Shown piece by piece: positions 3,570-58,813 of a stretch of 64,000 bases of DNA. The stretch comes from Acutalibacteraceae bacterium (GTDB taxonomy: Bacteria; Bacillota; Clostridia; Oscillospirales; Acutalibacteraceae). Position 1 is the first letter of the stretch; each line of letters begins with the position of its first letter. The notes below the pieces were generated by a model. It ran no database searches, was not told the DNA's origin, and saw only the letters and a program-made list of their open reading frames with translations. Both the position numbers and the translations under genes were made by a program. The stretch is from NCBI GenBank assembly GCA_045605425.1, contig JAZUQA010000012.1, forward strand, positions 246-64,245. The letters are read 5' to 3'.

Positions 3570-3636
3570 GCTTTATCACCTCGCATTATGACTATATCAA
3601 AAAAGCAACCCGAAAAGGTTGCTTTTGCACGAACGG

Positions 3637-5265: not shown

Positions 5266-5300
5266 AAATATTGTAGAGGACAAAAAGGAGAGAATTGATT

Positions 5301-6575: not shown

Positions 6576-6578
6576 CAA

Positions 6579-7229
6579 ATGGCTCGAATCGAAAGAAACG
6601 GAAATCGAAAAACAAGAGACCAGTTTGCTAAAAAAAGAGTCCCTGAGTTAGGCTATTATTTCATTGTAACTGACACAAAAGAAACAGAACAAAATTATAT
6701 GCATGGGTTGAGAGACTCTATTCCGTCGGATTTACAAGGCAAACTGGTAATAAAGGTAGTTAAAACCAAAACAAAAAACTTGGTAGAAGAGGCAATGGAT
6801 CTCGCCTCTTTGCATCCACAATATGGAGAAACTTGGATTATTTTTGACAGAGATCAAGTTCAAAATTTTGATGAGATCATTTGGCAAGCAAGAGAAAAAG
6901 GCATTCATGTCGGATGGACAAACCCATGTATTGAAGAATGGTTTTGTGCATATTTCGGCAAAATGCCTACATACGCAGATTCAGTTTCGTGCTGTTCGGG
7001 ATTCGGCAAAATTTTCGAGAATGCTACCAATCAAAAATACGAAAAATCAGATACGGCAATATACAAAAAGCTGATTCGTTTCGGAAACGAAGACGAAGCA
7101 ATTAAACTTGCTCAAAGAAAATTGAGTGAACACCGAGCGAACGGTAAGACAAAACCTTCAGAGATGAACCCTTGTACAACTGTTCACCTTTTGGTTGGTG
7201 AGATAAAAGGTAAAACAAAAAAGGAGTAA
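6579..7229 (+). CDS. RloB-like protein (Toprim-like partner of the AAA ATPase), AbiLii-like
   Basis: 216 aa. YYFIVTDTKETEQNY near the N-terminus and WIIFDRDQVQNFDEIIWQAREKGIHVGWTNPCIEEWF match my recollection of RloB family hallmarks (xxDrD, NPcFE-W). The start is 3 nt after the upstream stop, with AAGGAGG embedded in the upstream gene end. Confidence 0.75.
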   Translation: MARIERNGNRKTRDQFAKKRVPELGYYFIVTDTKETEQNYMHGLRDSIPSDLQGKLVIKVVKTKTKNLVEEAMDLASLHPQYGETWIIFDRDQVQNFDEIIWQAREKGIHVGWTNPCIEEWFCAYFGKMPTYADSVSCCSGFGKIFENATNQKYEKSDTAIYKKLIRFGNEDEAIKLAQRKLSEHRANGKTKPSEMNPCTTVHLLVGEIKGKTKKE

Positions 7230-7232
7230 AGT

Positions 7233-33570: not shown

Positions 33571-33690
33571 ATCTCGACAAACTATAATTTATCTTATCCA
33601 ATCCTTTGCTGCGTTATTTTTCAAAAAACTCTTGACAAAATTGCGATTATTGATATAATAACTTGTGTTGCATATTGCAACGGCAAATGT

Positions 33691-33767
33691 GGCCCGGTAG
33701 TTCAGTTGGTTAGAACGCTAGCCTGTCACGCTAGAGGTCGACGGTTCGAGCCCGTTCCGGGTCGCCA
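33691..33767 (+). tRNA. tRNA-Asp (anticodon GTC)
   Basis: Cloverleaf folded by hand: acceptor GGCCCGG/CCGGGTC, anticodon stem CTAGC/GCTAG with loop CTGTCAC, T-arm GACGG-TTCGAGC-CCGTC, encoded CCA. Confidence 0.9.
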
Positions 33768-33772
33768 TATTT

Positions 33773-33848
33773 GCTGCTATGGCTCAGGTGGTAGAGCACA
33801 TCCTTGGTAAGGATGAGGTCGGCAGTTCGAGTCTGCCTAGCAGCTCCA
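33773..33848 (+). tRNA. tRNA-Thr (anticodon GGT); integration target of the downstream element
   Basis: Acceptor GCTGCTA/TAGCAGC, anticodon stem CATCC/GGATG with loop TTGGTAA, T-arm GGCAG-TTCGAGT-CTGCC, encoded CCA. The 3' 46 nt are repeated at 42000..42045. Confidence 0.9.
33803..33848 (+). repeat. attL (46-bp direct repeat, 3' part of the functional tRNA-Thr)
   Basis: cttggtaaggatgaggtcggcagttcgagtctgcctagcagctcca is identical to 42000..42045. Confidence 0.9.
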
Positions 33849-33951
33849 ATCCCTTGAAACTTAAGGTTTCAAGGGATTTTTCATTTGTTTTTGAAATTTC
33901 TTAGACCTCATCCCTGAATCGCAATTTTTTAGTAAAGGATGCGGTCTAACT

Positions 33952-34884
33952 ATGAACAGAAAAATCACTATGAACAGGACTGAAAACAAGACTTTTGAAC
34001 AGGTCTTTTCAATGTTCATAACTTCACGAGCGGCAAAAGGCGTTGCCGATGCCACAATCAGGAATTATCATCAACATTTGCACAGTATTTCAAAGTATCT
34101 TGACATTCAGATGTCCTTTGATGCTCTTTCCAAAAGCACTATCGATGAAATGATTGTATCAATGAGAAAATCAGAACTTGCACACAACTCTATTGCAACC
34201 TATGTCAGGGTTATAAAGACCTTTTTGACTTGGTGCAATGAAGAAGGTTTGTCTGATGTAAGAATCAAAGGTCTGAAGGAAAAGGAAACAATCAAAGAAA
34301 CCTACTCCGATGAAGAACTTGAGAAACTTCTTGAGAAACCGAAAAAGGATTGTAATTTTTGCGAATACCGCAATTGGGTTATCGTCAATTTTCTTCTCAA
34401 TAGCGGATGCCGAGCGGCAACCATACGGAACATTCAGAACAGGGATGTTGACCTTCAGCGAAAACAGGTTATCTTCCGCCATAATAAAAATGGCAAGATT
34501 CAGGTTATTCCCCTTTGCACCCTGATGTGTAATATTCTTTATGATTATATGAAAATCCGACAAGGAAAATCGGAAGATTATCTTTTCTGCGACCAATACG
34601 GTCAGATGTTTACGGAGAATGGTCTCAGACTTGCCATTGAGCGGTATAATAAAAAAAGAGGTGTATCAAAAACAAGCACGCATCTGTTCCGACACACCTT
34701 CGCCCGAAAGTATTTAGTTGATTGCGGCGGCGATGCCTTTATGCTTCAAAGGCTCTTGGGTCATAGCACCCTGAATATGACAAAGCATTACTGCACAATC
34801 TTTGATGCAGATATTGCCAAGAACTATGACAGGGTTTCTCCTTTGGCTCAGATGCACCAAGAGAAAAAGAAAATAATAAAGTAA
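33952..34884 (+). CDS. Tyrosine-type site-specific integrase
   Basis: 310 aa. Catalytic signature GCRAATIRN (R), HLFRHTF (H-x-x-R), LGHSTLNMTKHY (H..Y). Confidence 0.9.
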   Translation: MNRKITMNRTENKTFEQVFSMFITSRAAKGVADATIRNYHQHLHSISKYLDIQMSFDALSKSTIDEMIVSMRKSELAHNSIATYVRVIKTFLTWCNEEGLSDVRIKGLKEKETIKETYSDEELEKLLEKPKKDCNFCEYRNWVIVNFLLNSGCRAATIRNIQNRDVDLQRKQVIFRHNKNGKIQVIPLCTLMCNILYDYMKIRQGKSEDYLFCDQYGQMFTENGLRLAIERYNKKRGVSKTSTHLFRHTFARKYLVDCGGDAFMLQRLLGHSTLNMTKHYCTIFDADIAKNYDRVSPLAQMHQEKKKIIK

Positions 34885-34983
34885 TAAAATAAAAGAAGTA
34901 GGAAATCATCAGGTTTCCTACTTCTTTTTATCAACCATATTACAAGTTTATAAAGACAGTATAACAACTTTTTAACAACTTTT

Positions 34984-36105
34984 TTAATCGCTATACATAT
35001 CTCTTATCTTATCCAAATGAGCCTTATAACCTTCAACCACATGGTCAGGCGAAAGAATCTTTACTCTTTTGCCGAACCCTGCTAACCAACCATAAAAAGG
35101 GTCGCTTATATCAACTGTTGTCATAACCGTAAAATAATCTTTGTCGAGCTTAGAATATGACACGCCCTTTTTGCCAAACCGCTCAACAACGGCATCCAAA
35201 AGGAAGTTAGGAAAACAAAGTGTGACGACTTCGGTTTTGCCTTTGAACATATTAAAAGTTCTTTTTACAAGCGAATCAATGTTGGTTTTTTCGTATTCTT
35301 CTTTGCCCTCTCTTGGCTCAAATGTAAAACAAACATCTTTCATTCTGTCAACTCTGTAAATTCTTATCTCTTTGTATTTATCATCAAATCCTAAAAGATA
35401 GTAATTACCTTCATTGACTATGAGTTTAAAAGGACTTACAACGTACTTTTCGCCCTTTCTTTGTGCAACCTGATTGTGAAGGTCATTGATTGAGTTTTTC
35501 ATATAATGAAAACTTATCTTTTCGGGTTCGTGCGGTTCGCCGTCAAAACTTACGCTCATCGCATCGTAAATGGTTTGAATGTTGTATATCAGAGCGGTAT
35601 TTGTTGTCTTGGGTCTGTCGATAACAAAAGCATCCGCCTTTATTTTTTTCGCCTGATGTTCGCTGAGAAATTCACAGGCGGCATCAATCAATCTCTGAGC
35701 CTCAGATTCAGAAACAAATTTTGCCGAGTTTATACATTCTGTCATAAGGCGTATATCTTCAAGATTAAAGTGCCTTTTATCTATGTAAAAACCTTTTTTA
35801 TACTTGTATTTTATAAGTTTTTCTTCATCATATTCATCAGTCGCAATTACTTCTGCAGCTTCTATAATATCAGAATCATTTTCAAGCATCCAATTAACTT
35901 CATTTATTTCTTCAATATCTTTGTATATTGAGCGGCGTTCAGCATAAATCTGACAACTTTCCTGAAGAAACCCCTCAATATCTTTACCTGTTGCAAAATG
36001 CTCTGCATCGGTATTTTTGAGAAGATATTGAAGAACGATGTAAGGCTTCATGCGTTGCTTTGTTTTTTTGCCGTGATGCTTGTCAGGATGCTTTTTCTCT
36101 GCCAT
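34984..36105 (-). CDS. HTH plus WYL domain transcriptional regulator
   Basis: 373 aa. N-terminal wHTH-like region (YIVLQYLLKNTDAEHFATGKDI) and WYL-type core VVSPFKLIVNEGNYYLLGFDDKYKEIRIYRVDRMKDV. Confidence 0.7.
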   Translation of the reverse strand: MAEKKHPDKHHGKKTKQRMKPYIVLQYLLKNTDAEHFATGKDIEGFLQESCQIYAERRSIYKDIEEINEVNWMLENDSDIIEAAEVIATDEYDEEKLIKYKYKKGFYIDKRHFNLEDIRLMTECINSAKFVSESEAQRLIDAACEFLSEHQAKKIKADAFVIDRPKTTNTALIYNIQTIYDAMSVSFDGEPHEPEKISFHYMKNSINDLHNQVAQRKGEKYVVSPFKLIVNEGNYYLLGFDDKYKEIRIYRVDRMKDVCFTFEPREGKEEYEKTNIDSLVKRTFNMFKGKTEVVTLCFPNFLLDAVVERFGKKGVSYSKLDKDYFTVMTTVDISDPFYGWLAGFGKRVKILSPDHVVEGYKAHLDKIRDMYSD

Positions 36106-36191
36106 AATATATCACCTTCTTGTGTCTGTTGGCGATATTATAACACGCAAGTCCAAAAGTGTGAAGTCTCTTAGTGTATTTATTAAAGCAC

Positions 36192-36400
36192 TTGAAAATT
36201 TAAATTTATATTGATATAATAATATTACCACACAAAATCAAATATTTTACTCATACAAGAGGTGGCATTTTTGTCTTTCGGCAAAAGTGCGGACTTCTAT
36301 ATTCGCATTTCTTGTATGAGTGACGAAAGATTTTGTGTGGTAGCAAATCGAAGTTCCGCATTTTTCGGTGTGTGTGGCTTCGGTTGCACACACTTTTTTA
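36192..36400 (+). ncRNA. Promoter-proximal structured RNA (nested rod-like hairpin plus intrinsic terminator); class unknown
   Basis: TTGAAA (36192..36197), 17-nt spacer, TATAAT (36215..36220). Perfect 14-bp stem 36226..36239 / 36329..36342, perfect 11-bp stem 36250..36260 / 36310..36320, and inner stem gcatttttg/caaaagtgc. Terminator gtgtgtgtggc-ttcg-gttgcacacac plus T-run (36368..36400). Confidence 0.5.
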
Positions 36401-36500
36401 TTTTATGGAGAATAAAACGGTGTCAGCTTGTATTGAGGAGGCGAAAATACGATTCTCCATAAACAGTATCAAAATACATACAAAACAAGAGGTGTTTATT

Positions 36501-37175
36501 ATGAAGAAAACTATATCCTTACTTTTAACATTTATGCTTTTACTGACTTTTGCCGCTTGCGGTAATAAACAAGATAACTTTTTGACAAAAACAAGCTGGA
36601 CAAATATTTACGACGAAAGTGATACTTTTACGTTTAAGGCTGACGGAACAGGAACATTTGGAAACATAAGCACTACATGGTCATTAGAAAATAGCAGATT
36701 AACTGTTTCGTATATGGGAACAATAAGAACTATGACAATAGAGTTTGATATTGTTGAATTTGAAAATTCAACAATAATTATTGAATGCCCAAACGATATT
36801 GTTGACACAAAAATATTAGTTTCTTCTGACAATTATGCAACAGAATCAGAAAAAGTTATAAATTATTTAAACACAGCAGCAACACCTTTGGACTGGGATA
36901 CGGTATATGATGAATATCTTTTAAACAAAGCACGAGCCGCAGAAAAGTATACAGGAACAATCGTAAAATGGACTGCAAAAGTTTATTATATAAGCGATAA
37001 TTTTTGTCAAATGGCAATAGAAGCTTCGAAAGGTAGTCCTGTAAACCCAATAGAGGTATATATGGAAACCAGTGAACTGACAAAGTTCAATATCTATGAT
37101 GAAATAACTGTTATCGGTATTTTAGAAATGGATTCAGCATCAACTCAAATCAACGGTGCATTTGTTGTGGACTAA
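36501..37175 (+). CDS. Hypothetical lipoprotein (element cargo)
   Basis: Lipoprotein signal MKKTISLLLTFMLLLTFAACGNK with a lipobox. The ORF-track extension back to 36333 covers the structured RNA and terminator and is unlikely to be real. Confidence 0.7.
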   Translation: MKKTISLLLTFMLLLTFAACGNKQDNFLTKTSWTNIYDESDTFTFKADGTGTFGNISTTWSLENSRLTVSYMGTIRTMTIEFDIVEFENSTIIIECPNDIVDTKILVSSDNYATESEKVINYLNTAATPLDWDTVYDEYLLNKARAAEKYTGTIVKWTAKVYYISDNFCQMAIEASKGSPVNPIEVYMETSELTKFNIYDEITVIGILEMDSASTQINGAFVVD

Positions 37176-37225
37176 AAAAATATTTAAATCAAAAAGGAAC
37201 GGCAATAAAACCGTTCCCTTTTCTT

Positions 37226-37813
37226 TTATGTCTCCAAAATAGAAAGATATTTATAAACCGTGTTTCGGCTCAGACCGCAGACCCTTGCGAACTCTGAAAG
37301 ATTCAGATTACCCGATTTGAAAGACGGATAATGTCTGTAAAACACTTGCGGAATCTGCTCTAATGTTGTGTGCGGTCGCCCGATTTTCGCTCCCTTCGCC
37401 GCCGCATTCCGCATCCCTGAACGCACTCTTTCACGGATGATTCTGAGTTCGAGTTCCGCAAACACTCCCGACATCTGAATGAACGCATTTGTCATGGGGT
37501 CAATCTGACCGTTTGAACAATCTACCGTAATACTGCCGACAATAACAAGTCTGAGTTTCTTTTCCTTTACGGTGTCAATAATTTCGCACAGTTGTTTTGT
37601 GCTTCGGGCAAGTCTTGAAACTTCGAGTGTGTATATTGAATCACCCTCTTTCGCCTGTGCCAAGAGTGATGAAAGTTCCTGTTTTACGGCACTGTCGCCG
37701 TGTTCGTATTCAAGGAATATTTCCGTTGCTCCTGCGGTTTTAAGTTCCCTGATTTGGCGGTCGATATCCTGTTTGTTTTCGTTGGTACTGCATCGAGCAT
37801 ATCCGTAGTTCAT
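37226..37813 (-). CDS. Small serine recombinase (resolvase/invertase family)
   Basis: 195 aa. Catalytic N-terminus MNYGYARCSTNENKQDIDRQ, SRLARS motif, C-terminal HTH (SEFARVCGLSRNTVYKYL). Confidence 0.9.
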   Translation of the reverse strand: MNYGYARCSTNENKQDIDRQIRELKTAGATEIFLEYEHGDSAVKQELSSLLAQAKEGDSIYTLEVSRLARSTKQLCEIIDTVKEKKLRLVIVGSITVDCSNGQIDPMTNAFIQMSGVFAELELRIIRERVRSGMRNAAAKGAKIGRPHTTLEQIPQVFYRHYPSFKSGNLNLSEFARVCGLSRNTVYKYLSILET

Positions 37814-37861
37814 GATTTATCCTTTCACCGCCCCACTTTTGCGTGGGGCGGATTGTTTTGT

Positions 37862-38137
37862 TTAGCAGATTGAGAAGCGGCGGCTGCTGACTTGCTTTGT
37901 AAATTCCTTATACATATCGCCGTGAGCCTTTTTGAAGGATGTTGTATCAAATCTCTGTGAGAGAACCGATGTCCAACGGATGATGTATGCTCCTGCTTCA
38001 AGTTCCTCTGTGTTTTGATTGAGCATTTCGGCTTTCAGTGCGTCTCTTATTGCCTCGGCTTCTGCCTTTGCATCCTCAATGATTGTTTCCCACTCTGTGA
38101 GTGCCTCAATTTTTTTGATGATTTCATTGCTTGACAT
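37862..38137 (-). CDS. Hypothetical small coiled-coil protein
   Basis: 91 aa ORF upstream of, and co-oriented with, the recombinase gene. Followed by the hairpin ccgccccac/gtggggcgg (37829..37851). Confidence 0.5.
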   Translation of the reverse strand: MSSNEIIKKIEALTEWETIIEDAKAEAEAIRDALKAEMLNQNTEELEAGAYIIRWTSVLSQRFDTTSFKKAHGDMYKEFTKQVSSRRFSIC

Positions 38138-38191
38138 AGTTGTTATCTCCTTTGTTTTTTATTTGTTTGTTGTGTATCAACTGTCTTTATT

Positions 38192-38295
38192 ATACACAAA
38201 GTTCAGTGCATAGTCAATCGGCAATATGCACAAAGTTAAGTGCATAGAATTGGAGAAATTATACACTTGACTTTGTGTATATTGTTTGATATAAT
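38192..38295. promoter_or_regulatory. Divergent promoter/operator region: two 22-bp direct repeats, a palindrome and a consensus promoter for the XRE gene
   Basis: ATACACAAAGTTCAGTGCATAG (38192..38213) and ATGCACAAAGTTAAGTGCATAG (38226..38247), 20/22 identical. Palindrome tatacac..gtgtata overlaps TTGACT (38267..38272). 17-nt spacer, then TATAAT (38290..38295). Confidence 0.6.
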
Positions 38296-38324
38296 GATTA
38301 CAATGGAAAAGGGGGCTTTTAAAT

Positions 38325-38543
38325 ATGCCAATAGTATATGATAAATTATTTCAACTTTTGAAAGACAAAGGTTATACCACATACAAAATCCGACAGGAGA
38401 AGATAATAGGTCAGGGAACGCTGACCGCATTAAAAAATGGAACAGGCGGCTTAGACCACAAAACGCTTGCTCGACTTTGTGAAAAGTTTGATTGTCAGCC
38501 TGCCGACCTCATGGAGTATGTGAAAGACCCCGATGCTCAATAA
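38325..38543 (+). CDS. XRE/Cro-CI family HTH transcriptional regulator
   Basis: 72 aa. YKIRQEKIIGQGTLTALKNG ... TLARLCEKFDCQPADLMEY is typical of short HTH_26-type regulators. Confidence 0.85.
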   Translation: MPIVYDKLFQLLKDKGYTTYKIRQEKIIGQGTLTALKNGTGGLDHKTLARLCEKFDCQPADLMEYVKDPDAQ

Positions 38544-38821
38544 AGGGGGAAAATTGATTCTTGAACAAATAACGGTATTTTTTGAGCGGATTACCCTCGA
38601 TTTTTACTGAGCCAAAAGTGTCAAGGAAAAGAGTTGGTTTCTTGAACGGATAGACGGGGGCAATATTTCGGGAGAATCGAAAACTTTTTCACCGTTTGCG
38701 GAATTGCGTGGTTCGTTCTCCGTCTGAATGTGTTTTTTATTTTGGATTACGGTTTGAGCCGACCGCAAATGATAGAATTATTCTTTCACCGTAAAACGAG
38801 CCAAAAGGAACATAAACGAAA

Positions 38822-38864
38822 AATACGGCAAACCTTGAGATTGTCTCTCTTGGTTTGCCGTATT
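38822..38864. terminator. Bidirectional hairpin between the XRE gene and the end of the minus-strand operon
   Basis: Perfect 13-bp stem aatacggcaaacc / ggtttgccgtatt with a 17-nt loop. Confidence 0.55.
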
Positions 38865-38865
38865 G

Positions 38866-39000
38866 TCATTTGAAATCCTTAAAGATTTCGTCAAGAGCCA
38901 TATCGAGTGCGGTTTTCATGCTCTTTTGCATAAAGGCAAGAATTTCCGCCTCGATTATGTTTTTCTTTTTCTTCTTCTTTTTGTCTTTTGGATTCGACAC
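38866..39000 (-). CDS. Small lysine-rich hypothetical protein (44 aa)
   Basis: Own translation: GTG start 8 nt after AGGTGA, VSNPKDKKKKKKKNIIEAEILAFMQKSMKTALDMALDEIFKDFK, TGA stop. Last ORF of the operon. Confidence 0.4.
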   Translation of the reverse strand: MSNPKDKKKKKKKNIIEAEILAFMQKSMKTALDMALDEIFKDFK

Positions 39001-39002
39001 CG

Positions 39003-39188
39003 TTATTTCACCTCACTTGTAAAGATGAATTGAACAGTCTCAGGTTCTTCCGAATCCTGTAATGAGTTGTAGAAATTATCTCTCTGTTCTCTATAGTTTT
39101 CTATTGCAGATTTGCCGTTCATTTGATAATAAAACAAATCAGGAACTTTGCCCTATGCTCTGTTAAACTCCAATAAATCTTTATTCAT
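39003..39188 (-). CDS. Small hypothetical protein (61 codons) containing one in-frame TAG (comp 39153..39155)
   Basis: Own translation: GGAGA RBS, MNKDLLEFNRA[TAG]GKVPDLFYYQMNGKSAIENYREQRDNFYNSLQDSEEPETVQFIFTSEVK, TAA stop. The ATG overlaps the TGA of the TAG-read-through GIY-YIG ORF (ATGA). Confidence 0.45.
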
Positions 39189-39622
39189 ATATATTCTCCT
39201 TCCATAATATCATCAAGGGATATATTCAATGCACCCCTGTTGACCGTATAACTTCTCCAATTTTCCTCTTTTGGAATCTGAGTGTTCAGCGGCGGCTAAT
39301 ACAGGCGGATGAAATATCCTTCTCTTTCTCCGATTTCTTCTTCGATTTCTGCTCTTGTTTTGCTCTTGGCGGTATAAAGAACGTTGAATCTGACGTTATA
39401 TTTCCGCCTGTGGGCTTCCGCAAGAACTTTGTATTTGTTCTCTTTCGGATTTCCCATTGAAGCCCAATGTTCCGCCATTCGGTATAGAATATCTTTGCTT
39501 TTACCGATATAAACGATTTTATTGTTGACGGTTATTGAATAAACCCCCGAACACTAAAACTTTTTACTCCATTCTTGCTCTATGTATTTGTTGTATATGT
39601 TCTGTATGTGTAAATTACTCAT
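39185..39622 (-). CDS. GIY-YIG nuclease-domain protein with two in-frame TAG codons (comp 39554..39556 and 39296..39298); recoded/suppression-dependent, or a pseudogene
   Basis: Own translation after the AAGGAAGGAGA RBS: MSNLHIQNIYNKYIEQEWSKKF[TAG]CSGVYSITVNNKIVYIGKSKDILYRMAEHW...EREGYFIRLY[TAG]PPLNTQIPKEENW...GEYI, TGA stop. The GIY (GVYSI) and YIG (VYIGKS) motifs have no canonical start codon after the first TAG. The conserved E..I..Y.P.LN motif spans the second TAG. Confidence 0.6.
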
Positions 39623-39637
39623 ATTCATTCTCCTTCC

Positions 39638-40120
39638 TTAAAATACAAAATTACCGTATTCGTCTGTTGAACACTCTCTTACTTTTGGATTCTTTATATT
39701 GTTATAATTTATATTATTCGAGCTTATAATTTTCTCTATATTATTATGCGTATTTTCAATAACCCCTGCTGAGGTGTATTCAGAATTTGAAGGGGTATAT
39801 TCATTGTCGGGGGAAGGGGTATTTTCAATATCCCTCTCCGCACTTTTGTAAATCGCATCATAATCCACTATGATTTCGCCTTGCTGACCGTTTACACTTG
39901 GCTTATGTATTATCCAACCTTTTTCAATTAATGCTTTTCTTGCACTCTTATATGTTGTTTCCGTCATTCCGCAACGGTTCATAACTGTTGCCTCAGGAAC
40001 GGCAAAACTGCCGTTATCTGCATTTCCTGTCAGAAATAATATCAGTTTCAACTAAGCTCCTTCTTTGCCTGTCAGACCGTTAAATATTATTGATTCAAGG
40101 TGATTCGTTCTCATTGCCAT
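39638..40120 (-). CDS. Winged-HTH replication-initiator-like protein with one in-frame TAG (comp 40052..40054)
   Basis: Own translation: MAMRTNHLESIIFNGLTGKEGA[TAG]LKLILFLTGNADNGSFAVPEATVMNRCGMTETTYKSARKALIEKGWI... A standard-code alternative exists (TTG start at 40051 with AAGGAG upstream). The frame is also open further upstream to the ATG near 40189. Confidence 0.55.
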
Positions 40121-40151
40121 TCCCCACTTTTTATCCCTGTTTTTTTCTCCA

Positions 40152-40331
40152 TTAGCCCTCAGTATCGGTGCCTGAATAAAAACGCCCATAACCGCAAATC
40201 CTCCACTGTTCGCAAATAAATCTGATATACTGACTTGTATTCATGTGATATTTTCTTGCCTACTCTTGGATTGCTTCCTTTTCTTTTTCAGTCAGGCGAA
40301 GGTCAATTTTTTTATCTTTTTTTGGACTCAT
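40152..40331 (-). CDS. Ribbon-helix-helix (MobC/CopG-like) protein with one in-frame TAG (comp 40260..40262)
   Basis: Own translation after the AAAGGAGAG RBS: MSPKKDKKIDLRLTEKEKEAIQE[TAG]ARKYHMNTSQYIRFICEQWRICGYGRFYSGTDTEG, TAA stop. The RHH pattern (basic tail, RLT.E.K..I...A.....S.YIR) runs across the TAG. Confidence 0.6.
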
Positions 40332-40401
40332 ATTATCTCTCCTTTTACTTGTAAATTTTCTTTGAAATGAATTATCAGACATTGTCCTACCTTCTAAATA
40401 T

Positions 40402-40430
40402 ATTATACAAAAATTTTTTGTTAAAATCAA
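40402..40430 (-). promoter_or_regulatory. Putative sigma-70 promoter of the TAG-containing operon
   Basis: On the minus strand: TTGATT (comp 40425..40430), 17-nt spacer, TATAAT (comp 40402..40407). Confidence 0.55.
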
Positions 40431-40446
40431 AAAAGAGCGGTCGCCG

Positions 40447-40486
40447 CAAACAAAAGCACCGCTGAACTCGATTGAATTCAGCGGTG
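40447..40486 (-). terminator. Intrinsic terminator after the paralog-pair operon
   Basis: Minus-strand hairpin caccgctgaa / ttcagcggtg (40457..40486) followed by cttttgtttg. Confidence 0.6.
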
Positions 40487-40521
40487 GACTTGCTTTATTA
40501 AAATACATGGAGTTGTTCCTT

Positions 40522-41043
40522 TCAGGCAGCAGGGTCAACTATTTCATTTTCTTCAGTTGCGTTAACGTTTTCTGCAACTGCGTTATCGATTTTTATAACT
40601 GCGTTATCTTTTTCCTCTTGGACTTCATCAGAATTTTTGTCAACAGTCGGCATACCATAATTTACGATTTCAGGATATTTCTTCAAAAACCAATTTTTAA
40701 TTTCAGGATAACGGTATGCTTTTGAATGACATTCACTGATAAAAAGTTTATCATCAAGTTCTTTAAGAACGGCATCTCTTGTTTCAACAGGCTCAAACCT
40801 TTTGATATATTCTTTCATATAATCATAAGTTAATCCTTTATAGTGTTCCTGATTGCTGTTAGTGTTTATATCTTCACGGATAACCACCTCAAAATTCGGA
40901 AAACTCTTTACATACTCGACAAGCATTTTGTATTCCTTGTTTTTTGGGTTTTTTGCCTTTTCCGCAAACCATTTATAAAGAATGATTTGCTTGTTTGCGT
41001 AATCAATTCTTGCAGGGTTTATTCTTTTTCTTGACTTAGCCAT
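40522..41043 (-). CDS. Hypothetical protein, paralog B of the upstream gene
   Basis: ORF 40522..41052. The ATG at comp 41041..41043 is 8 nt after AAGGAAGG. Shares the YKGLTYDYMKEYI and IKNWFLKKYPEI motifs with paralog A. Confidence 0.6.
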   Translation of the reverse strand: MAKSRKRINPARIDYANKQIILYKWFAEKAKNPKNKEYKMLVEYVKSFPNFEVVIREDINTNSNQEHYKGLTYDYMKEYIKRFEPVETRDAVLKELDDKLFISECHSKAYRYPEIKNWFLKKYPEIVNYGMPTVDKNSDEVQEEKDNAVIKIDNAVAENVNATEENEIVDPAA

Positions 41044-41065
41044 GATATTCACCTTCCTTTCTTAA

Positions 41066-41512
41066 TTAAGCCACAACTCTAAGCTTGGCTTTCTTTTCTT
41101 CACGAGCCTTTGCTCTCTTGGTTTTGATTTCCTTAAGTGTCTTGTCAGTATCATTGTTGAATTCTTCGATTTCAGGATATGTCGCCAAGAACCACATTTT
41201 AATGTCACCATAAGAGTATTCTTTGATAGTAACATCTCTTTCACCTTTTTCATTAAGACCCCTGAGCTTATAGAACATTTTCAGGTTTTCTTCCTTATTT
41301 TCATGAGCTTCGATGTATCGCTTCATGTAATCATAACCAAGACCTTTGTATGTGTCTCTCTTGGTTGAGTTTGCTTTTACAACAATTTCATAACCTGTGA
41401 ATATTGTGCGGAACTTTACAAGTTCTTCAAACTTTTCACTTCCGAACTTTCCTGCTTCCTTTGATTCCGCCTTTGTCATTACAATAACTTTCTTTTCGTG
41501 ATTTGCATACAT
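41066..41512 (-). CDS. Hypothetical protein, paralog A
   Basis: 148 aa. Motifs YKGLGYDYMKRYI and IKMWFLATYPEI, with a basic C-terminal tail. Confidence 0.6.
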   Translation of the reverse strand: MYANHEKKVIVMTKAESKEAGKFGSEKFEELVKFRTIFTGYEIVVKANSTKRDTYKGLGYDYMKRYIEAHENKEENLKMFYKLRGLNEKGERDVTIKEYSYGDIKMWFLATYPEIEEFNNDTDKTLKEIKTKRAKAREEKKAKLRVVA

Positions 41513-41999
41513 AATTTTTCTCCTTAATAATAGGCGTTAGGTCGCCACCCTATTTTTATTATTCAGCGGTAAGTCGCTACCTTATTTCAGCACTTCAGGT
41601 TTCACCGTTTGCCTCTTGGTTTCATTCACTCCTTTCAGGCGATTTGTTTTGGTGTGTTCCCCTCTGCTGTGACTACAGTATATCACGCAATCTGAATTTA
41701 TCAGTCGTTATAAATGCAAAAAAACAAGAACGACACAAAGCTTTTCAAAAAAGTTGTATCTTTCTTCTTAAATAGTTGTTATTAGGTTGTTATAAAGGCT
41801 CATAAATGTTGTTAAAAACTTATTACATACCTGTTGATTTTATAATATAATTGTTTTATACTATTATTGATTTAGAGATGAGGTCTGAGTTAGTATGAAA
41901 CAAGACCTCTACATAATTAAAAATCCTAAAACTTGTTTGGTGTCAAGGGGTTGTTGGGGGTATCGTCTCCAAAACAAGACCGAGAATCGGTCTTGTGTG

Positions 42000-42045
42000 C
42001 TTGGTAAGGATGAGGTCGGCAGTTCGAGTCTGCCTAGCAGCTCCA
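42000..42045 (+). repeat. attR (46-bp copy of the tRNA-Thr 3' end)
   Basis: Identical to 33803..33848. Followed by the hairpin aaatcccgtttgc/gcaaatgggattttt, which I read as the original tRNA terminator. Confidence 0.9.
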
Positions 42046-42141
42046 GAAATCCCGTTTGCATTAAGCAAATGGGATTTTTTCAATAAAAAGCAAAATTAGA
42101 GCTTGTCGGGGTCTTTATCAATGTAAAATTGATTATCGACC

Positions 42142-42310
42142 GTAGGGAGCGACGCCCTCGTCGCTCCGTGGTAAATATTATATCAATCTTATGACGAGCT
42201 GTAGGGGCGACCTTTGGTCGTCCGCAACAAAAGCGATGTGACAATATGCATTACCATAAGGTGGATATATCAACAACCTTTTTCGGAGCGACGGGGGCGT
42301 CGCTCCCTAC
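42142..42310. repeat. 169-bp GC-rich hairpin element with perfect 13-bp terminal inverted repeats
   Basis: GTAGGGAGCGACG (42142..42154) and CGTCGCTCCCTAC (42298..42310). Each end also forms a local hairpin, ggagcgacg-N3/4-cgtcgctcc. A third related hairpin, ggcgacctttggtcgtcc, lies in the middle. Confidence 0.6.
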
Positions 42311-42342
42311 TCTTTAAAAATAACACGAAAGGAATAAGCATT

Positions 42343-42849
42343 ATGGTTTTTCCCGAAAAAAGCAAGAGGGTTTCCAAGATTGACACTTACCTTAACTGTG
42401 CGGAGGTTTTTGCCTACAGAAGCACCTGCCTCAAGCGCAAATACGGTGCGGTTATAGTCAAGGACGACGTGGTTATTTCCACGGGCTACAACGGCTCGCC
42501 CAGAGGCTTTGAAAACTGCTGTGAAATCGGTCACTGTCCCCGTATGGCGCAGGATATGCACCAGGGTGAGGGCTACGGAATCTGCCGTGCCGTACACGCC
42601 GAGATGAATGCCCTGCTCAACTGTTCACGCCAGCAGACACTCGGTGCGGATTTGTACCTTGTCGGTGTCAATCCTTCGGACAACACTATCCACAAGGCAA
42701 AGCCCTGCCCTGTATGTGCAAGGAATATCATTCAGGCAGGCATACGAAATGTTTACCTGCGTGTGGGTGAGGGTGAGGACGAATATATTGTAGTGCCTGC
42801 CGACGAGCTGAAATGGCTGCAGGAAACTGTGGATAATAAAAAAGCATAA
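42343..42849 (+). CDS. Deoxycytidylate (dCMP) deaminase, ComEB family
   Basis: ORF 42214..42849. The likely start is MVFPEKSK (ATG 42343) after GAAAGGAA. Zinc motifs HAEMNAL and PCPVCA. Confidence 0.85.
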   Translation: MVFPEKSKRVSKIDTYLNCAEVFAYRSTCLKRKYGAVIVKDDVVISTGYNGSPRGFENCCEIGHCPRMAQDMHQGEGYGICRAVHAEMNALLNCSRQQTLGADLYLVGVNPSDNTIHKAKPCPVCARNIIQAGIRNVYLRVGEGEDEYIVVPADELKWLQETVDNKKA

Positions 42850-42914
42850 ATATTATTTATAATATTATACAGAAAAAAGTATGCTGGTTTTTGCTCGATT
42901 TGTGCAATAATTAC

Positions 42915-42943
42915 TTGATAAATCGGTATTATTTATGTATAAT
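42915..42943 (+). promoter_or_regulatory. Putative sigma-70 promoter of the NifU-like/GGGtGRT operon
   Basis: TTGATA (42915..42920), 17-nt spacer, TATAAT (42938..42943). Confidence 0.5.
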
Positions 42944-42984
42944 ACATTGTGAGATTAAATGGCTCAGAAAGGAGACTAATAAAA

Positions 42985-43677
42985 ATGAACTATTCACATG
43001 AAGTAGAAAAAATGTGTGTCGTTGCCAAGGGTCCCCACCACGGTCCTGCTCCCATCCCTGAAGAGGGCAAGTGGGTTAAGGCATACGAAATCAAGGACAT
43101 TTCCGGCTTCTCACACGGTGTGGGCTGGTGTGCTCCCCAGCAGGGTACCTGCAAAATTTCTCTTAACATCAAGGAAGGCATCGTAGAGGAGGCACTTGTT
43201 GAGACTATCGGCTGCTCCGGTATGACTCACTCCGCAGCTATGGCTGCCGAGATTCTTCCCGGTAAGACACTTCTTGAGTGCCTTAACACAGACCTTGTTT
43301 GTGACGCTATCAACGTTGCAATGCGTGAAATCTTCCTTCAGCTCGTTTACGGCAGAACTCAGTCCGCTTTCTCCGAGGACGGTCTTCTTGTCGGTGCAGG
43401 TCTTGAGGACCTCGGCAAGGGCCTTCGTTCACAGGTCGGTACAATGTTCTCCACAAAGGCTAAGGGCGTTCGTTACCTCGAAATGGCTGAGGGCTACGTA
43501 ACACGTATGGCTCTCGACGCTAACGACCAGGTTATCGGCTACGAGTTCGTTAAGCTCGGCAAGATGCTTGAGGATATCCGCCACGGCGTTTCTCCTGACG
43601 AAGCATACAAGAACAATATGGGCAGCTACGGCAGATTCGCAGACGCTGCAAAATACATCGACCCCAGAGAAGAATAA
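42985..43677 (+). CDS. NifU/IscU-N-terminal-like protein (partner of the GGGtGRT protein)
   Basis: Start MNYSHEVEK after GAAAGGAG. ETIGCSGMTHSAAMAAEILPGKTLLE resembles the IscU scaffold core. Confidence 0.55.
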   Translation: MNYSHEVEKMCVVAKGPHHGPAPIPEEGKWVKAYEIKDISGFSHGVGWCAPQQGTCKISLNIKEGIVEEALVETIGCSGMTHSAAMAAEILPGKTLLECLNTDLVCDAINVAMREIFLQLVYGRTQSAFSEDGLLVGAGLEDLGKGLRSQVGTMFSTKAKGVRYLEMAEGYVTRMALDANDQVIGYEFVKLGKMLEDIRHGVSPDEAYKNNMGSYGRFADAAKYIDPREE

Positions 43678-43694
43678 GAAGGAGGTAGAATACA

Positions 43695-44693
43695 ATGGCT
43701 GTTACATTTGAAGGTAAAGAAAGAAGAATGGAAAAAATCGAGGCTTGCCTTGCTGAGTACGGTATCGAAAGCCTTGAAGCTGCCAGAGATCTCTGCCTCT
43801 CCAAGGGCATCGACGTCGAAGCAATCGTTAAGGGCACACAGCCCATTGCTTTCGAGAACGCTGTCTGGGCATACACTCTCGGTGTAGCTATCGCTCTTTC
43901 CAAGGGCACAACAAACGCTGCAGATGCTTCCGCTGATATCGGTATCGGCCTTCAGGCATTCTGTATTCCCGGTTCCGTTGCTGAAAACCGTAAGGTTGGT
44001 CTTGGCCACGGTAACCTTGGCTCAATGCTTCTCAAGGACGAAACAAAGTGCTTTGCATTCCTTGCAGGTCACGAGTCCTTTGCAGCAGCAGAAGGTGCAA
44101 TCAAAATCGCTCTTACCGCTAACAAGGTTCGTAAGGAGCCCCTTCGTGTTATCCTCAACGGTCTCGGTAAGGACGCTGCTATGATCATTTCCCGTATCAA
44201 CGGCTTCACCTATGTTGAAACCGAGTACGATTTCTACAAGGACGAGCTTACAGTTGTTAACACAACTCCTTACTCCGACGGCGACCGTGCTCTTGTTCGC
44301 TGCTTCGGCGCTAACGATGTTCTTGAAGGCGTTGCAATTATGAAGCACGAGGGTGTTGAGGTTTCCATCACCGGTAACTCCACCAACCCCACACGCTTCC
44401 AGCACCTTGTTGCAGGCACCTACAAGAAGTGGGCAATTGAAAACGGCAAGAGCTACTTCTCCGTTGCTTCCGGCGGCGGCACAGGCAGAACTCTTCACCC
44501 CGATAACGTTGCTGCAGGTCCTGCTTCCTACGGTCTTACAGACTCCATGGGCAGAATGCACGGCGACGCTCAGTTTGCTGGTTCTTCCTCTGTTCCTGCT
44601 CACGTTGAGATGATGGGTCTCATCGGTATGGGTAACAACCCGATGGTCGGCGCTACAGTTGCTTGCGCAGTTGCTGTTGCACAGGCTAAGTAA
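43695..44693 (+). CDS. GGGtGRT family protein (conserved, function unknown)
   Basis: 332 aa. Contains the eponymous motif SGGGTGRTLHPDNV. Confidence 0.75.
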   Translation: MAVTFEGKERRMEKIEACLAEYGIESLEAARDLCLSKGIDVEAIVKGTQPIAFENAVWAYTLGVAIALSKGTTNAADASADIGIGLQAFCIPGSVAENRKVGLGHGNLGSMLLKDETKCFAFLAGHESFAAAEGAIKIALTANKVRKEPLRVILNGLGKDAAMIISRINGFTYVETEYDFYKDELTVVNTTPYSDGDRALVRCFGANDVLEGVAIMKHEGVEVSITGNSTNPTRFQHLVAGTYKKWAIENGKSYFSVASGGGTGRTLHPDNVAAGPASYGLTDSMGRMHGDAQFAGSSSVPAHVEMMGLIGMGNNPMVGATVACAVAVAQAK

Positions 44694-44816
44694 TTTATCT
44701 TGCGTACACTGATTTTTCAGAGTCGCTAAAAAGCAACAATTTTCACGCTCATTGGGTGGCAAATTATGCTGCCCAATGAGTTGCCATTAAATTGGAAATT
44801 ATAAGGAGATATTAAA

Positions 44817-56250: not shown

Positions 56251-56290
56251 TAATTAATAGATAATAGTTTTTGTGGGAGGGGAGAGCACT

Positions 56291-57394
56291 ATGGAAGACA
56301 TATACATCGGCGGCAAAAAGCCAATGGATGACAATTCGACAGCCGAGGATATATATATAACTCCCCGCCGCAGACAGCAACCGGCTTATGAGCCGCCGAA
56401 GGAGCCCTTTTACCCCGACGAAGAGCCCGAAAACGAGCCGGAAGAGCCCGAAGAAAAGCGGCCGAAGAAAAAGAAAAAATCAAAATTTTTCCGCAGGATA
56501 AAGGCGATAATTCTTGTTGCCGCCCTGCTTGTCGGTTTGCTTACGGGTATGGTTTACCACACCTTCAGCAGCGTCAATTACAACGAAACGGGTCACGGCG
56601 AAAACGTCTTTCTCGATGAGGACAAGCTCATGCAGAGCACTTCAGTCAAGAACATACTTCTCATCGGTGTGGACAGGCGTAACCCCGACGAATCCTCACG
56701 CTCGGATACTATGCTTCTGGTATCGCTCAACACAAAAACGGGCAAAATAAAGCTGACCTCCTTTATGCGTGACACCTATGTGTATATCCCCGAGCGGCAG
56801 AAGAATGCAAAGCTCAACGCTGCCTGCACCTGGGGCGGTGCGCAGATGGTTATGGACACCATTGAATACAACTTCAATATTAAAATCGACCACTATATGC
56901 TTGTCGATTTCACAATGTTTGAGGATATTATCAACGGCCTTGACGGTGTTAACGTTGAAGTAACCGAAAAAGAAGCCAGGTATATGCGTGATAAGGTTCA
57001 CCTGAAAAACGTTCAGGCAGGTGAGAGTGTTCACCTCAACGGAAAAGAGGCGCTGTGGTATTGCCGTATCAGAGCTCTCGATTCGGACTTTATGCGCACC
57101 AAGCGTCAGCGCAAGGTTATGACTGCGCTTATAGAAAAGGTCAAAAAGACCAATCCCTTTGAGCTTTATACTCTTACGGGAGAAATAGTCAGCCTTGTCG
57201 AAACGGATATGTCACCAGCAACGCTCACCTCGCTTGCGGTAAACGGGCTTTTCCGCTACCTGCACTACGATATTGAGCAGGGCAGTGTGCCAAAGGAAGG
57301 CACATGGCAGAGCAAAAAGATTTCGGGTCAGTCCGTGTTGAGCGTTGACCTTGGCGAAAACAGAGAATATCTTGAAGAATTTATATATGAATAG
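56291..57394 (+). CDS. LytR-CpsA-Psr (LCP) family cell-wall polymer transferase
   Basis: The ATG at 56291 follows GGGAGGGGAG. TM anchor and LCP motif RSDTMLLVSLN. Ends in TAG. Confidence 0.85.
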   Translation: MEDIYIGGKKPMDDNSTAEDIYITPRRRQQPAYEPPKEPFYPDEEPENEPEEPEEKRPKKKKKSKFFRRIKAIILVAALLVGLLTGMVYHTFSSVNYNETGHGENVFLDEDKLMQSTSVKNILLIGVDRRNPDESSRSDTMLLVSLNTKTGKIKLTSFMRDTYVYIPERQKNAKLNAACTWGGAQMVMDTIEYNFNIKIDHYMLVDFTMFEDIINGLDGVNVEVTEKEARYMRDKVHLKNVQAGESVHLNGKEALWYCRIRALDSDFMRTKRQRKVMTALIEKVKKTNPFELYTLTGEIVSLVETDMSPATLTSLAVNGLFRYLHYDIEQGSVPKEGTWQSKKISGQSVLSVDLGENREYLEEFIYE

Positions 57395-57406
57395 GGGACG
57401 GTAATA

Positions 57407-58813
57407 ATGAAGCAGTTTATGGGTAAGGACTTCCTTCTGGATAACGAAGTGGCTGTTGAGCTTTTTGAAGCCGCTAACGAAATGCCGATTTTTGACTGGC
57501 ATTGTCACCTTTCGCCCAAAGAAATTTACGAAAACAAACAGCCGTCGGACATCGCCTGGCTTATGCTTGGCGGCGACCACTACAAGTGGCGTGCAATGCG
57601 CTCCTTCGGCATTGACGAAAAATACATCACGGGTGACGCAAGCTGGCACGACAAGTTTGTTGCCTTTGCAACAATGCTTGCTTACGCTCCCGGCAACCCG
57701 CTTTACCATTGGACTCACCTTGAGCTTCAGCGCTATTTCGGCATTGACACACCTTTAAGTGCAAAGACAGCCGAGGAAATCTGGGAAAAGGCAAACGCAC
57801 AGATTAAGGCAGGCGGCTTTACTCCCCGTGAGCTTATCGCAAAATCCAACGTTTCCTGCGTTTTCACAACCGATGATCCTGCGGATTCGCTTGAATACCA
57901 CGTGCTTCTTGTCAAGGACGAAAGCTTCAAGACAAAGGTTATTCCTGCTTTCCGTCCCGATAAGGCTCTCGGTATCGAGCTTCCCTCATTTATTCCGTGG
58001 CTCAGCAGCCTTGAAGAGCGTGTGGGCAGAAAGATTGAAAGCTATTCAGCACTTGAAGAGGCTCTGCTCGAAAGAATAGAAGCCTTTGCAGCTATGGGCT
58101 GTAAGGGCAGCGACCACGCTTTCACCTATGTACCCTATGCCGAGGCTTCACCCGATGAGCTTGAGGCGATATTCCAGAAGGGCAGACTCGGCGGCAGCTT
58201 CACTACGCACGAGCTTGACGCTTACCGCACTGCACTTCTTCGCACTCTTGCCAAGGAATACGCACGCCGTGGCTGGGCTATGGAGCTTCACATGGGTCCG
58301 ATGAGAAACAACAACACCCTTATGTTTAATAAAATAGGCCCCGACACGGGCTTTGACTCAATAGACGACAAGGAAATTGCACAGCCCCTTTCACGCTTCC
58401 TTGACAGCCTTGCAAAGGAGGAGCTTCTTCCCAAGACTATCCTCTTTACTCTCAACCCCAAGGACAACTATGTTCTCGGCACTATGCTCGGCAACTTCCA
58501 GAATTCCGACGCACCGGGTAAAATCCAGTTCGGCAGCGGCTGGTGGTTCAACGACAACCTTGACGGTATGCGTGAGCAGATGAAGGCACTCGGCAACCTT
58601 TCCGTTCTCGGAAAATTTGTCGGTATGGTTACGGATTCCCGTTCCTTCCTTTCTTACCCCAGGCACGAGTATTTCCGCCGCATTCTCTGCGGTCTGCTCG
58701 GCGATATGGTTGACAAGGGTCTTTATCCCAACGATATGGAAACACTTAAACAGCTCGTGCAGGATGTTTCCTACAACAACGCTGTAAAATACTTTGGAAT
58801 AGAGGGTATCTGA
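57407..58813 (+). CDS. uxaC: Glucuronate isomerase
   Basis: 468 aa. FDWHCHLSPKEIYEN and WWFND motifs characteristic of UxaC. Confidence 0.9.
   Translation: MKQFMGKDFLLDNEVAVELFEAANEMPIFDWHCHLSPKEIYENKQPSDIAWLMLGGDHYKWRAMRSFGIDEKYITGDASWHDKFVAFATMLAYAPGNPLYHWTHLELQRYFGIDTPLSAKTAEEIWEKANAQIKAGGFTPRELIAKSNVSCVFTTDDPADSLEYHVLLVKDESFKTKVIPAFRPDKALGIELPSFIPWLSSLEERVGRKIESYSALEEALLERIEAFAAMGCKGSDHAFTYVPYAEASPDELEAIFQKGRLGGSFTTHELDAYRTALLRTLAKEYARRGWAMELHMGPMRNNNTLMFNKIGPDTGFDSIDDKEIAQPLSRFLDSLAKEELLPKTILFTLNPKDNYVLGTMLGNFQNSDAPGKIQFGSGWWFNDNLDGMREQMKALGNLSVLGKFVGMVTDSRSFLSYPRHEYFRRILCGLLGDMVDKGLYPNDMETLKQLVQDVSYNNAVKYFGIEGI

Follow-up and report, generated by a model that had tools for sequence, protein, structure and literature searches.

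The window analysed here, a stretch of 64,000 nucleotides of contig JAZUQA010000012.1 (assembly GCA_045605425.1) from an Acutalibacteraceae bacterium, contains an island of 8.2 kb with 13 genes (33803..42045), both ends of which are marked by a 46-nucleotide perfect direct repeat. Our subject is this island and, within it, a minus-strand transcription unit of five genes, four of which carry TAG codons in frame.

The island and its insertion site

The left end of the island coincides with the 3' part of a host tRNA gene, which is repeated at the right end. Positions refer to the window.

33773..33848, plus strand: host tRNA-Thr(GGT) (ARAGORN, Rfam), whose 3' 46 nucleotides (33803-33848) form attL
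42000..42045, plus strand: attR, the second copy of the 3' 46 nucleotides of tRNA-Thr (direct-repeat search)

The G+C content between the two att copies is 37%, compared with about 48% around them. The anticodon loop contained in the att repeat is that of tRNA-Thr, and a partial tmRNA/tRNA-like match of Rfam at 41947-42048 corresponds to the attR copy. Empty-site alleles are present on four metagenome scaffolds (L171-L173 and L175), the flanks of which are 96-98% identical to positions 33614-33849 and 42000-44697 of the window; in these strains, the dCMP-deaminase gene comes immediately after tRNA-Asp and tRNA-Thr, which gives the exact boundaries of the insertion. Because closely related strains show the empty site, the island is a discrete integrative insertion that is polymorphic between strains and mobile.

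The island is best explained as a member of a widespread family of integrative elements of about 8 kb in gut Clostridia (Oscillospirales-type metagenome-assembled genomes, MAGs), other members of which are integrated at other tRNA genes or within a gene. One MAG (CALAQQ01) carries two family members at different integration sites (L004 and L009), with GIY-YIG nucleases 97% and 83% identical to that of the window. Some distant members (L139, L143 and L149-L151) adjoin tRNA-Pro(CGG) and tRNA-SeC(UCA), which presumably mark a further tRNA target site rather than an amber suppressor. A 96-nucleotide “tRNA-Lys” called by ARAGORN in one relative (L006:7636-7731) was rejected as an attR pseudo-tRNA, in which the duplicated 3' part of tRNA-Thr is joined to a hairpin of the element. 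Neither a megablast search of the PLSDB plasmids with the whole element nor a tblastn search of the GenBank phages with the GIY-YIG protein gave a match, and the integrase of the window has no exact entry among public assemblies.

One transcription unit carries in-frame TAG codons

The TAG-bearing unit consists of five genes between a promoter and a hairpin, all on the minus strand, listed here in the order of transcription.

40402..40430, minus strand: promoter of the unit, TTGATT-17-TATAAT with the spacer AAAAAATTTTT, 5' of the RHH gene (promoter search)
40152..40331, minus strand: RHH protein, NikA/MbpA-like (Pfam NikA-like 8.7e-9; NCBIfam MbpA/MobA below cut-off)
39638..40189, minus strand: Rep-like winged-helix protein, putative replication initiator or DnaD-like (PHROG replication initiation 7e-10, DnaD-like 6e-9; HTH_36)
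39185..39628, minus strand: GIY-YIG nuclease (Pfam GIY-YIG 3.8e-6; PHROG endonuclease)
39003..39188, minus strand: p61, without a Pfam match, its ATG overlapping the TGA stop of the GIY-YIG gene (ATGA)
38866..39000, minus strand: p44, lysine-rich, the last gene of the unit, with no TAG in the window and TAG in 2 of 20 homologues
38822..38864, minus strand: hairpin with 19-nucleotide arms directly 3' of the p44 stop (inverted repeat I2), likely the terminator of the TAG-bearing unit

All five in-frame TAGs of the island lie on the minus strand within this unit, at codon 24 of the RHH gene (40260-40262), codon 46 of the Rep-like gene (40052-40054), codons 25 (39554-39556) and 111 (39296-39298) of the GIY-YIG gene and codon 12 of p61 (39153-39155). 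The NikA-like match spans the RHH codon, the HTH_36 match spans the Rep-like codon and the Pfam GIY-YIG match spans codon 111, codon 25 being located two residues ahead of its start. The position of the p61 ATG on the GIY-YIG stop is the usual packing of a translated operon. The remaining nine genes of the island contain no in-frame TAG, and all 13 genes terminate in TAA (10 genes) or TGA (three genes). When TAG is set against CAA/CAG, the unit has five TAGs to 14 Gln codons, compared with none to 45 elsewhere (Fisher p=0.0015).

The eight genes outside the unit, with their regulatory signals, are the following.

33952..34884, plus strand: tyrosine integrase (PHROG phrog_1 4e-43, NCBIfam Xer-like), with 0 TAG and 13 Gln codons
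34984..36105, minus strand: HTH-WYL-WCX regulator (Pfam WYL 5.7e-11, WCX; PADLOC WYL 2e-23), TAG-free
36501..37175, plus strand: lipoprotein in a variable cargo slot (lipobox in the translation), TAG-free
37226..37813, minus strand: small serine recombinase of the resolvase type (Pfam Resolvase 1.9e-29), TAG-free
37862..38137, minus strand: p91, a conserved protein of 91 amino acids (PHROG 6244 1.6e-13, RecE-like C-terminal 5e-11), TAG-free
38189..38295, no strand assigned: two divergent promoters and an inverted repeat, located between p91 and the XRE gene (two 11/12 sigma-70 matches)
38325..38543, plus strand: XRE-family regulator (PHROG transcriptional repressor; Pfam HTH_26/HTH_3 on homologues), TAG-free
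40457..40486, minus strand: intrinsic terminator 3' of parB (13-bp stem, 7 GC pairs, T-run)
40522..41052, minus strand: parB, paralog B (alignment with parA), TAG-free
41066..41512, minus strand: parA, paralog A (alignment with parB), TAG-free

Since the terminator at 40486-40457 and the promoter at 40430-40402 divide them, parA-parB and RHH/Rep/GIY-YIG/p61/p44 form two separate minus-strand transcription units. This distribution reproduces what a preliminary description of the sequence had reported, namely that the integrase, both regulators, the serine recombinase, the lipoprotein and the two paralogs are free of TAG, that no gene of the island ends in TAG and that the five sense-like TAGs are confined to the second operon with its own promoter. 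When TAG is counted as sense, the coding density of the element increases from 0.71 to 0.76 with gene fragments included and from 0.60 to 0.76 with the count restricted to intact genes, only one unit being recoded; recoding has been called when coding density increases by more than 10% (Borges et al., bioRxiv 10.1101/2021.08.26.457843).

Among the other genes, p91 shows a dN/dS of 0.05-0.14. The cargo slot is occupied in relatives by an Mrr-type nuclease or by a surface protein of 1030 amino acids (L001 and L002 differ from the window here). The paralogs parA and parB have no match in Pfam, PHROG, NCBIfam or PADLOC, and an AlphaFold2 model (pLDDT 71.5) has no fold match in the PDB below E=0.4. 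Rfam matches at 38218-38288, in the divergent promoter region, are hairpin-like noise. Searches of Pfam, PHROGs and NCBIfam found no terminase, portal, capsid, tail or lysis gene among the 13 genes, and Pfam and NCBIfam gave no relaxase, only the sub-threshold similarity of the RHH protein to MbpA/MobA/NikA.

Translation of TAG across the family

We collected about 70 related loci (15 genome, 52 metagenome and three further contigs) and translated them with TAG kept as a symbol; the gene sets used for the statistics are BLAST-defined homologous segments, and dN/dS was estimated by the simple Nei-Gojobori method. A protein search with the nuclease returned 104 relatives, many of them full-length proteins in which both TAG positions read Q. 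In the DNA of such relatives, the codons behind these “Q” residues turned out to be TAG, which a recoding-aware gene caller had translated, so that a homologue that seems to lack TAG in a protein database can be a gene-caller artefact. The Logan/ENA-derived entries P0001-P0057 show Q where the DNA has TAG. In NCBI/JGI standard-code annotations (P0058, P0060, P0061, P0064 and P0092), the nuclease is cut to 91-111 of its 145 amino acids.

Family-wide, the genes of the unit contain 172 TAG, 496 CAA/CAG and not a single in-frame TAA or TGA in 14,085 codons, whereas the other core genes contain one TAG and 929 CAA/CAG in 24,472 codons (p~3e-70, not corrected for kinship). The conclusion that TAG is a sense codon is safe despite the relatedness of the loci because many independent TAG positions contribute to it. 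The sole TAG outside the unit occurs in a doubtful, 22%-identical match to the integrase, a gene that otherwise shows 224 Gln codons across the family. TAG is carried by 62 of 63 distinct GIY-YIG homologues, by all 11 RHH homologues, by 12 of 20 Rep homologues and by 12 of 16 p61 homologues.

Single positions are partly retained and partly exchanged. Two relatives (L002 and L003) have TAG at the window positions in RHH, Rep, GIY-YIG codon 25 and p61, and CAG at GIY-YIG codon 111. In the distant L001, the TAGs occupy other positions, at each of which the window has Gln, and the Rep TAG of the window is CAG. Over the first 19 loci, TAG occupies 29 different alignment columns, its partner being Gln where the sequences are close, and even the near-invariant Gln of the PPLN-QIP motif is TAG in two of the 19 sequences. 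Homologues of p61 likewise have Gln opposite its TAG. For the sequence 3' of the first TAG, dN/dS is 0.10-0.25 in Rep, GIY-YIG (about 0.1) and RHH, similar to the TAG-free genes; for p61 it ranges from 0.09 to 0.59, with the higher values in distant pairs.

The same unit could be taken for an inactive remnant that has accumulated nonsense mutations, as its genes appear fragmented under standard-code annotation, including the NCBI MAG records with a nuclease of 91-111 amino acids. However, the approximately 130 homologous genes of the unit contain TAG only and never TAA, TGA or a frameshift, the sequence 3' of the TAGs is under purifying selection, some TAG positions are conserved while others turn over against Gln, and the element, flanked by a perfect att repeat, is present in some strains and absent from others. 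Decay is thus very improbable. TAG-only stops, TAG/Gln turnover and purifying selection 3' of TAG together argue that the TAGs of the unit are almost certainly translated sense codons, and TAG is most simply read as Gln. The preliminary description had proposed comparing homologous elements, with an inactive copy as the alternative; the homologues carry TAGs too, and this copy is not simply an inactive one. As it had also supposed, the genes for maintenance and regulation are readable in the standard code, and the same division between them and the TAG-bearing replication/nuclease unit recurs across a large family.

With moderate support, the TAG-bearing unit is predicted to be a replication module. 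This prediction is based on the Rep-like PHROG match of 7e-10, on iteron-like repeats within the Rep-like gene (39750-39834, repeats D3 and D10) and on the same Rep-GIY-p61 order in two further loci (L017 and L019); the element has no primase or helicase. The first of these loci (L017:1915-3910) belongs to a cultured isolate, Hominicoprocola fusiformis CLA-AA-H188, in which the Rep-GIY-p61 core has in-frame TAGs. In the second (L019:8956-10983), the same 2-kb core, with 93% nucleotide identity to L017, ends a low-GC viral contig of 96 kb, the DNA upstream of the core being unrelated; on this contig, a UDG gene has TAG at a conserved Gln. Either the module is mobile or the contig is chimeric.

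The host uses the standard code

Stop codons of the host open reading frames in the window are TAA in 31, TGA in 12 and TAG in two cases (ending at 27187 and 57394), and in the flanks of the relatives 16 of 131 host genes end in TAG, giving TAG an overall share of 4-12% of stops. Host genes in the window and in these flanks are intact under the standard code and have no in-frame TAG, and the coding density of host DNA in the loci L001-L018 barely changes when TAG is taken as sense.

The host therefore uses the standard code, in which TAG is not a sense codon genome-wide. A host reading TAG as sense throughout its genome, the circumstance under which the preliminary description would have given up its view, would be in line with the rarity of TAG stops in the window, but long host reading frames without any in-frame TAG, the two window genes and 16 flank genes that end in TAG and the lack of a rise in coding density in host DNA make this practically negligible. 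One of the two TAG stops is of interest in itself: the LytR_cpsA_psr gene at 56273-57394 is in frame with the gene at 57407-58813, located 12 nucleotides downstream, and read-through at 57394 would fuse the LytR_cpsA_psr protein with the product of this next gene.

In the 64 kb window, ARAGORN detects only tRNA-Asp(GTC) and tRNA-Thr(GGT), and Rfam at E<=1 over the element adds no further tRNA; apart from the attR copy, it matches just the two tRNAs of the host. The earlier statements that the window holds no tRNA with a CUA anticodon and that only 2 of 45 host genes end in TAG, with TAA dominant, are both borne out. Nor is there a tRNA(CUA) in the approximately 70 related loci including their host flanks, which cover a small part of each host genome. 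The tRNA-SeC(UCA) beside some relatives was discarded as a suppressor candidate, as it is a host gene and reads UGA. Elsewhere in the window (5295-8393 and 1764-5090), a low-GC stretch of defence-like genes, an AAA_21 ATPase with RloB and a protein with a CAP12/Pycsar-type TIR domain, adjoins an ABC exporter/GHKL kinase/LytTR regulator set.

Relatives among TAG-recoded phages

A search of IMG/VR with the nuclease identified two phages of about 25 kb (L020 and L021), whose integrase is 52% identical to that of the window and which encode an RHH protein and a GIY-YIG protein (46% identical) just 5' of terS and terL. The large terminase of these phages led to 67 loci, the nearest clade of which has 71-80% terL identity and genomes of about 25 kb. 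This clade has both standard-code and strongly TAG-recoded members, the coding density of the latter increasing from 0.60-0.68 to 0.90-0.93 with TAG as sense, and the TAGs in their terL genes most often face Gln, which makes up 82 of the 162 aligned residues. Code-15 phages, which the preliminary description had recommended looking for, are thus found among the relatives of the element.

A fully covered recoded genome of 25,540 bp (IMGVR_UViG_3300001517_000005; L027 and L090) has TAG in nearly all of its genes. Its integrase, 35% identical to that of the window, is the only sizeable gene free of TAG (0 TAG, 13 Gln), and the N-terminal 93 amino acids of its Rep-like protein (L027:8789-9370) are 40% identical to the Rep of the element.

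Allowing up to four substitutions, the 29-nucleotide promoter of the unit is found 5' of the RHH gene in nine related element loci and 5' of the lytic operon in the phages L020-L023, and nowhere else in the 2.19 Mb of fetched loci. This sharing suggests common regulation or ancestry. Including the spacer AAAAATTTTT, the promoter is kept in L001-L011, and it is also present in the two standard-code phages first found (L020:1482-1510 and L021:8663-8691). Beyond the promoter, the DNA similarity between element and phages is limited to coding similarity in the integrase and GIY-YIG genes. As judged by sequence, the element is related to the 25 kb phage clade through its integrase family, the N-terminus of Rep, the GIY-YIG protein and the promoter of the lytic operon.

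Among described phages, Topaz comprises TAG-recoded temperate phages of 22+/-3 kb that integrate at tRNA-Thr of Oscillospiraceae and have TAG-free integrases, and recoding has been proposed to act as a lysis-lysogeny switch (Borges et al., bioRxiv 10.1101/2021.08.26.457843). The clade found here resembles Topaz in size and, for some members, in TAG recoding with a TAG-free integrase, as judged from the published description.

A probable translational lock and its possible release

With the standard code in force, translation would end at codon 24 of RHH, codon 46 of Rep, codon 25 of GIY-YIG and codon 12 of p61, and the replication and nuclease functions would stay locked at the level of translation even when the strong promoter at 40402-40430 fires. 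Given this early truncation of four proteins, the unit is probably locked, conditionally, in an ordinary cell. Such a lock would act on top of any transcriptional control by the XRE or WYL regulator and would be released only once UAG is decoded as Gln. The TAG-recoded temperate phages of about 25 kb in these hosts would need the same UAG-decoding state, and a phage-derived, satellite-like element could in this way couple its own replication to the code switch.

These steps are not equally firm. Taken as a whole, the reading that we prefer to its rivals, although we are evenly divided on it, is a satellite-like island of phage origin that keeps its replication module shut until UAG is decoded and is coupled to the state of code-15 phages. 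For the trigger taken by itself, that it is coupled to code-15 phages may be the case, but we lean slightly towards doubting it. The most far-reaching version would make these elements phage satellites with an amber-gated module freed by the TAG=Gln shift of the lytic cycle, the genetic code itself being the signal by which the helper is sensed; we put this forward tentatively and would sooner expect it to fail than to hold.

Several observations weigh against the coupling to phages and the satellite character of the element. No circular, excised or virus-like-particle-derived copies of the element were found, no contig has a terminal overlap, and the GIY-YIG search of the IMG/VR viral contigs gave no copy of the element itself. 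No family for packaging hijack, such as terS or capsid-size and remodelling functions, was matched in Pfam and PHROG, and no helper prophage is present in the window, the low-GC ends of which contain signalling and defence genes (1-9 kb) and glycosyltransferases (60-64 kb). The shared promoter is near-consensus and AT-rich, and the clade is likened to Topaz by description. In a divergent subfamily (L164:3781-5554 and L165:3184-4808), Rep is another and larger protein and the unit is nearly devoid of TAG; the lock is thus not shared by all members and the TAG trait is lineage-specific, as in recoded phage clades. Lastly, the 97 loci of the phage clade contain no tRNA gene, and Rfam at E<0.5 has no match in the complete recoded genome of 25,540 bp, so that the supply of a suppressor by the phage is not demonstrable. 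The almost TAG-free subfamily provides a natural standard-code comparator.

The preliminary description had proposed a translational gate opened by a suppressor tRNA from a helper phage, in a satellite or mobilisable island. The lock on the module is a sound deduction from the reading frames, and the integrative, polymorphic nature of the island with its att sites stands; the helper-supplied suppressor has no direct evidence, as the check for such a tRNA in related phages was negative, and the satellite status stays putative, no packaging or capsid-redirection gene having been found. Because the recoded phage relatives also are without tRNA, the missing suppressor in the element is not diagnostic of helper dependence and does not tell a satellite from an autonomous code-15 phage.

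As even the first genes 3' of the promoter in the recoded phage contain TAG, the capacity to decode UAG must precede phage protein synthesis, which keeps decoding on the side of the host firmly in play. UAG might then be read without any helper, by a chromosomal tRNA(CUA) or by a near-cognate tRNA-Gln(CUG) when RF1 is scarce or the cell under stress, and in this view the TAGs would be attenuators or stress sensors that hold the nuclease and the initiator at a very low level. Gln is a natural near-cognate insertion at UAG, TAG is rare as a stop in the host genes of the window (two of 45), and the fully covered recoded phage, with TAG nearly everywhere and no tRNA, would depend on decoding that exists beforehand; in addition, suppressor tRNAs have been detected in only 40% of TAG-recoded genomes (Borges et al., bioRxiv 10.1101/2021.08.26.457843). 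Against this, efficient constitutive suppression would be costly with 4-12% of host genes ending in TAG, the tRNAs in the host flanks, a small part of each genome, include no tRNA(CUA), and very little protein would result if the one or two TAGs of each gene were read by a near-cognate tRNA. We consider read-through intrinsic to the host unlikely, although it deserves to be taken seriously.

Alternatively, the unit could be a sensor for phages, with the GIY-YIG nuclease and its partners made only upon code-15 infection and cutting phage or host DNA in abortive infection or interference, the island being a defence island. It is typical of defence islands to have a WYL regulator and a variable cargo slot, filled in this family by a lipoprotein or an Mrr-type nuclease, the GIY-YIG nuclease is the most consistent carrier of TAG (62/63), and such a device would work without a suppressor in the island. 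However, PADLOC recognises no defence system on the element and matches the nuclease only to its homing-endonuclease model at 1e-4, a locked unit with an initiator, iterons and an RHH protein fits replication better, and homologous GIY-YIG and RHH genes adjoin terS in phages themselves. A defence function is improbable on this evidence.

Returning to a replication module that awaits the decoding of UAG, the lack of a suppressor tRNA in both the element and the recoded phages implies that these Clostridia, or an unrecognised factor, would have to provide inducible UAG decoding. The question is thereby sharpened to which component decodes UAG in hosts where neither the element nor the recoded phages of about 25 kb have a suppressor tRNA. 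If the element is an amber-gated satellite, the H. fusiformis isolate with its related module could make inducible decoding by the host testable.

Comparison with known systems

The class of mechanism is already known for phages and prophages; what is new is its presence in a small element without virion genes. The element shares with the Topaz and Garnet phages the reading of TAG as Gln in a standard-code host and a TAG-free integrase, with Topaz also the integration at tRNA-Thr of Oscillospiraceae, and many Topaz and Garnet genomes likewise have no detectable suppressor tRNA; for these phages, recoding has been proposed to part lysogeny from lytic functions (bioRxiv 10.1101/2021.08.26.457843). 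In contrast to them, the element has only 8.2 kb and no structural, packaging or lysis genes, recodes one short unit (four genes, five TAGs) with replication and nuclease functions rather than late genes, and has WYL and XRE regulators, a serine recombinase and a cargo slot.

With the SaPI/PICI and P4 satellites, the element has in common that it is a small island with an integrase at a tRNA gene, with its own regulators, a predicted replication initiator, a cargo slot of possible benefit to the host and a promoter like that of the lytic operon of its candidate helper. At 8.2 kb compared with about 25 kb, its size is about one-third that of the candidate helper, as in phage satellites. Unlike in SaPI/PICI and P4, no terS, capsid-remodelling, cos or pac function is recognised in the element, which is a putative satellite. 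SaPI/PICI and P4 satellites sense their helper by protein-protein derepression or through transcriptional activators; to our knowledge, no known satellite senses its helper through the genetic code.

Integrative mobilizable elements similarly combine an integrase with a small RHH protein, that of the element being weakly similar to relaxosome accessory proteins (NikA/MbpA), but the element is without a relaxase or a recognisable oriT and its RHH scores are below the curated cut-offs. A parallel to the proposed lock comes from the laboratory, where amber (sus) conditional-lethal phage mutants grow on supE hosts. There, too, the expression of essential genes needs a suppressor in trans that reads UAG as Gln; the TAGs of the element, in contrast, are natural, conserved in the family and under purifying selection.

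Our survey of the literature, which did not extend to all journals, found no description of a recoded satellite or any other non-viral recoded mobile element, and the recoding of stop codons has until now been regarded as a feature of phage genomes and mainly of their late genes. Routine pipelines do not see the present family because standard-code annotation truncates its genes, leaving 91-111 amino acids of a nuclease of 145. Compared with the recoded phages, the element brings alternative coding into a class of mobile elements where it is new, a small non-viral island with one recoded unit that is conserved in many gut Clostridia, and with its four short genes and five codons it offers a simple and testable case for gating at the level of translation.

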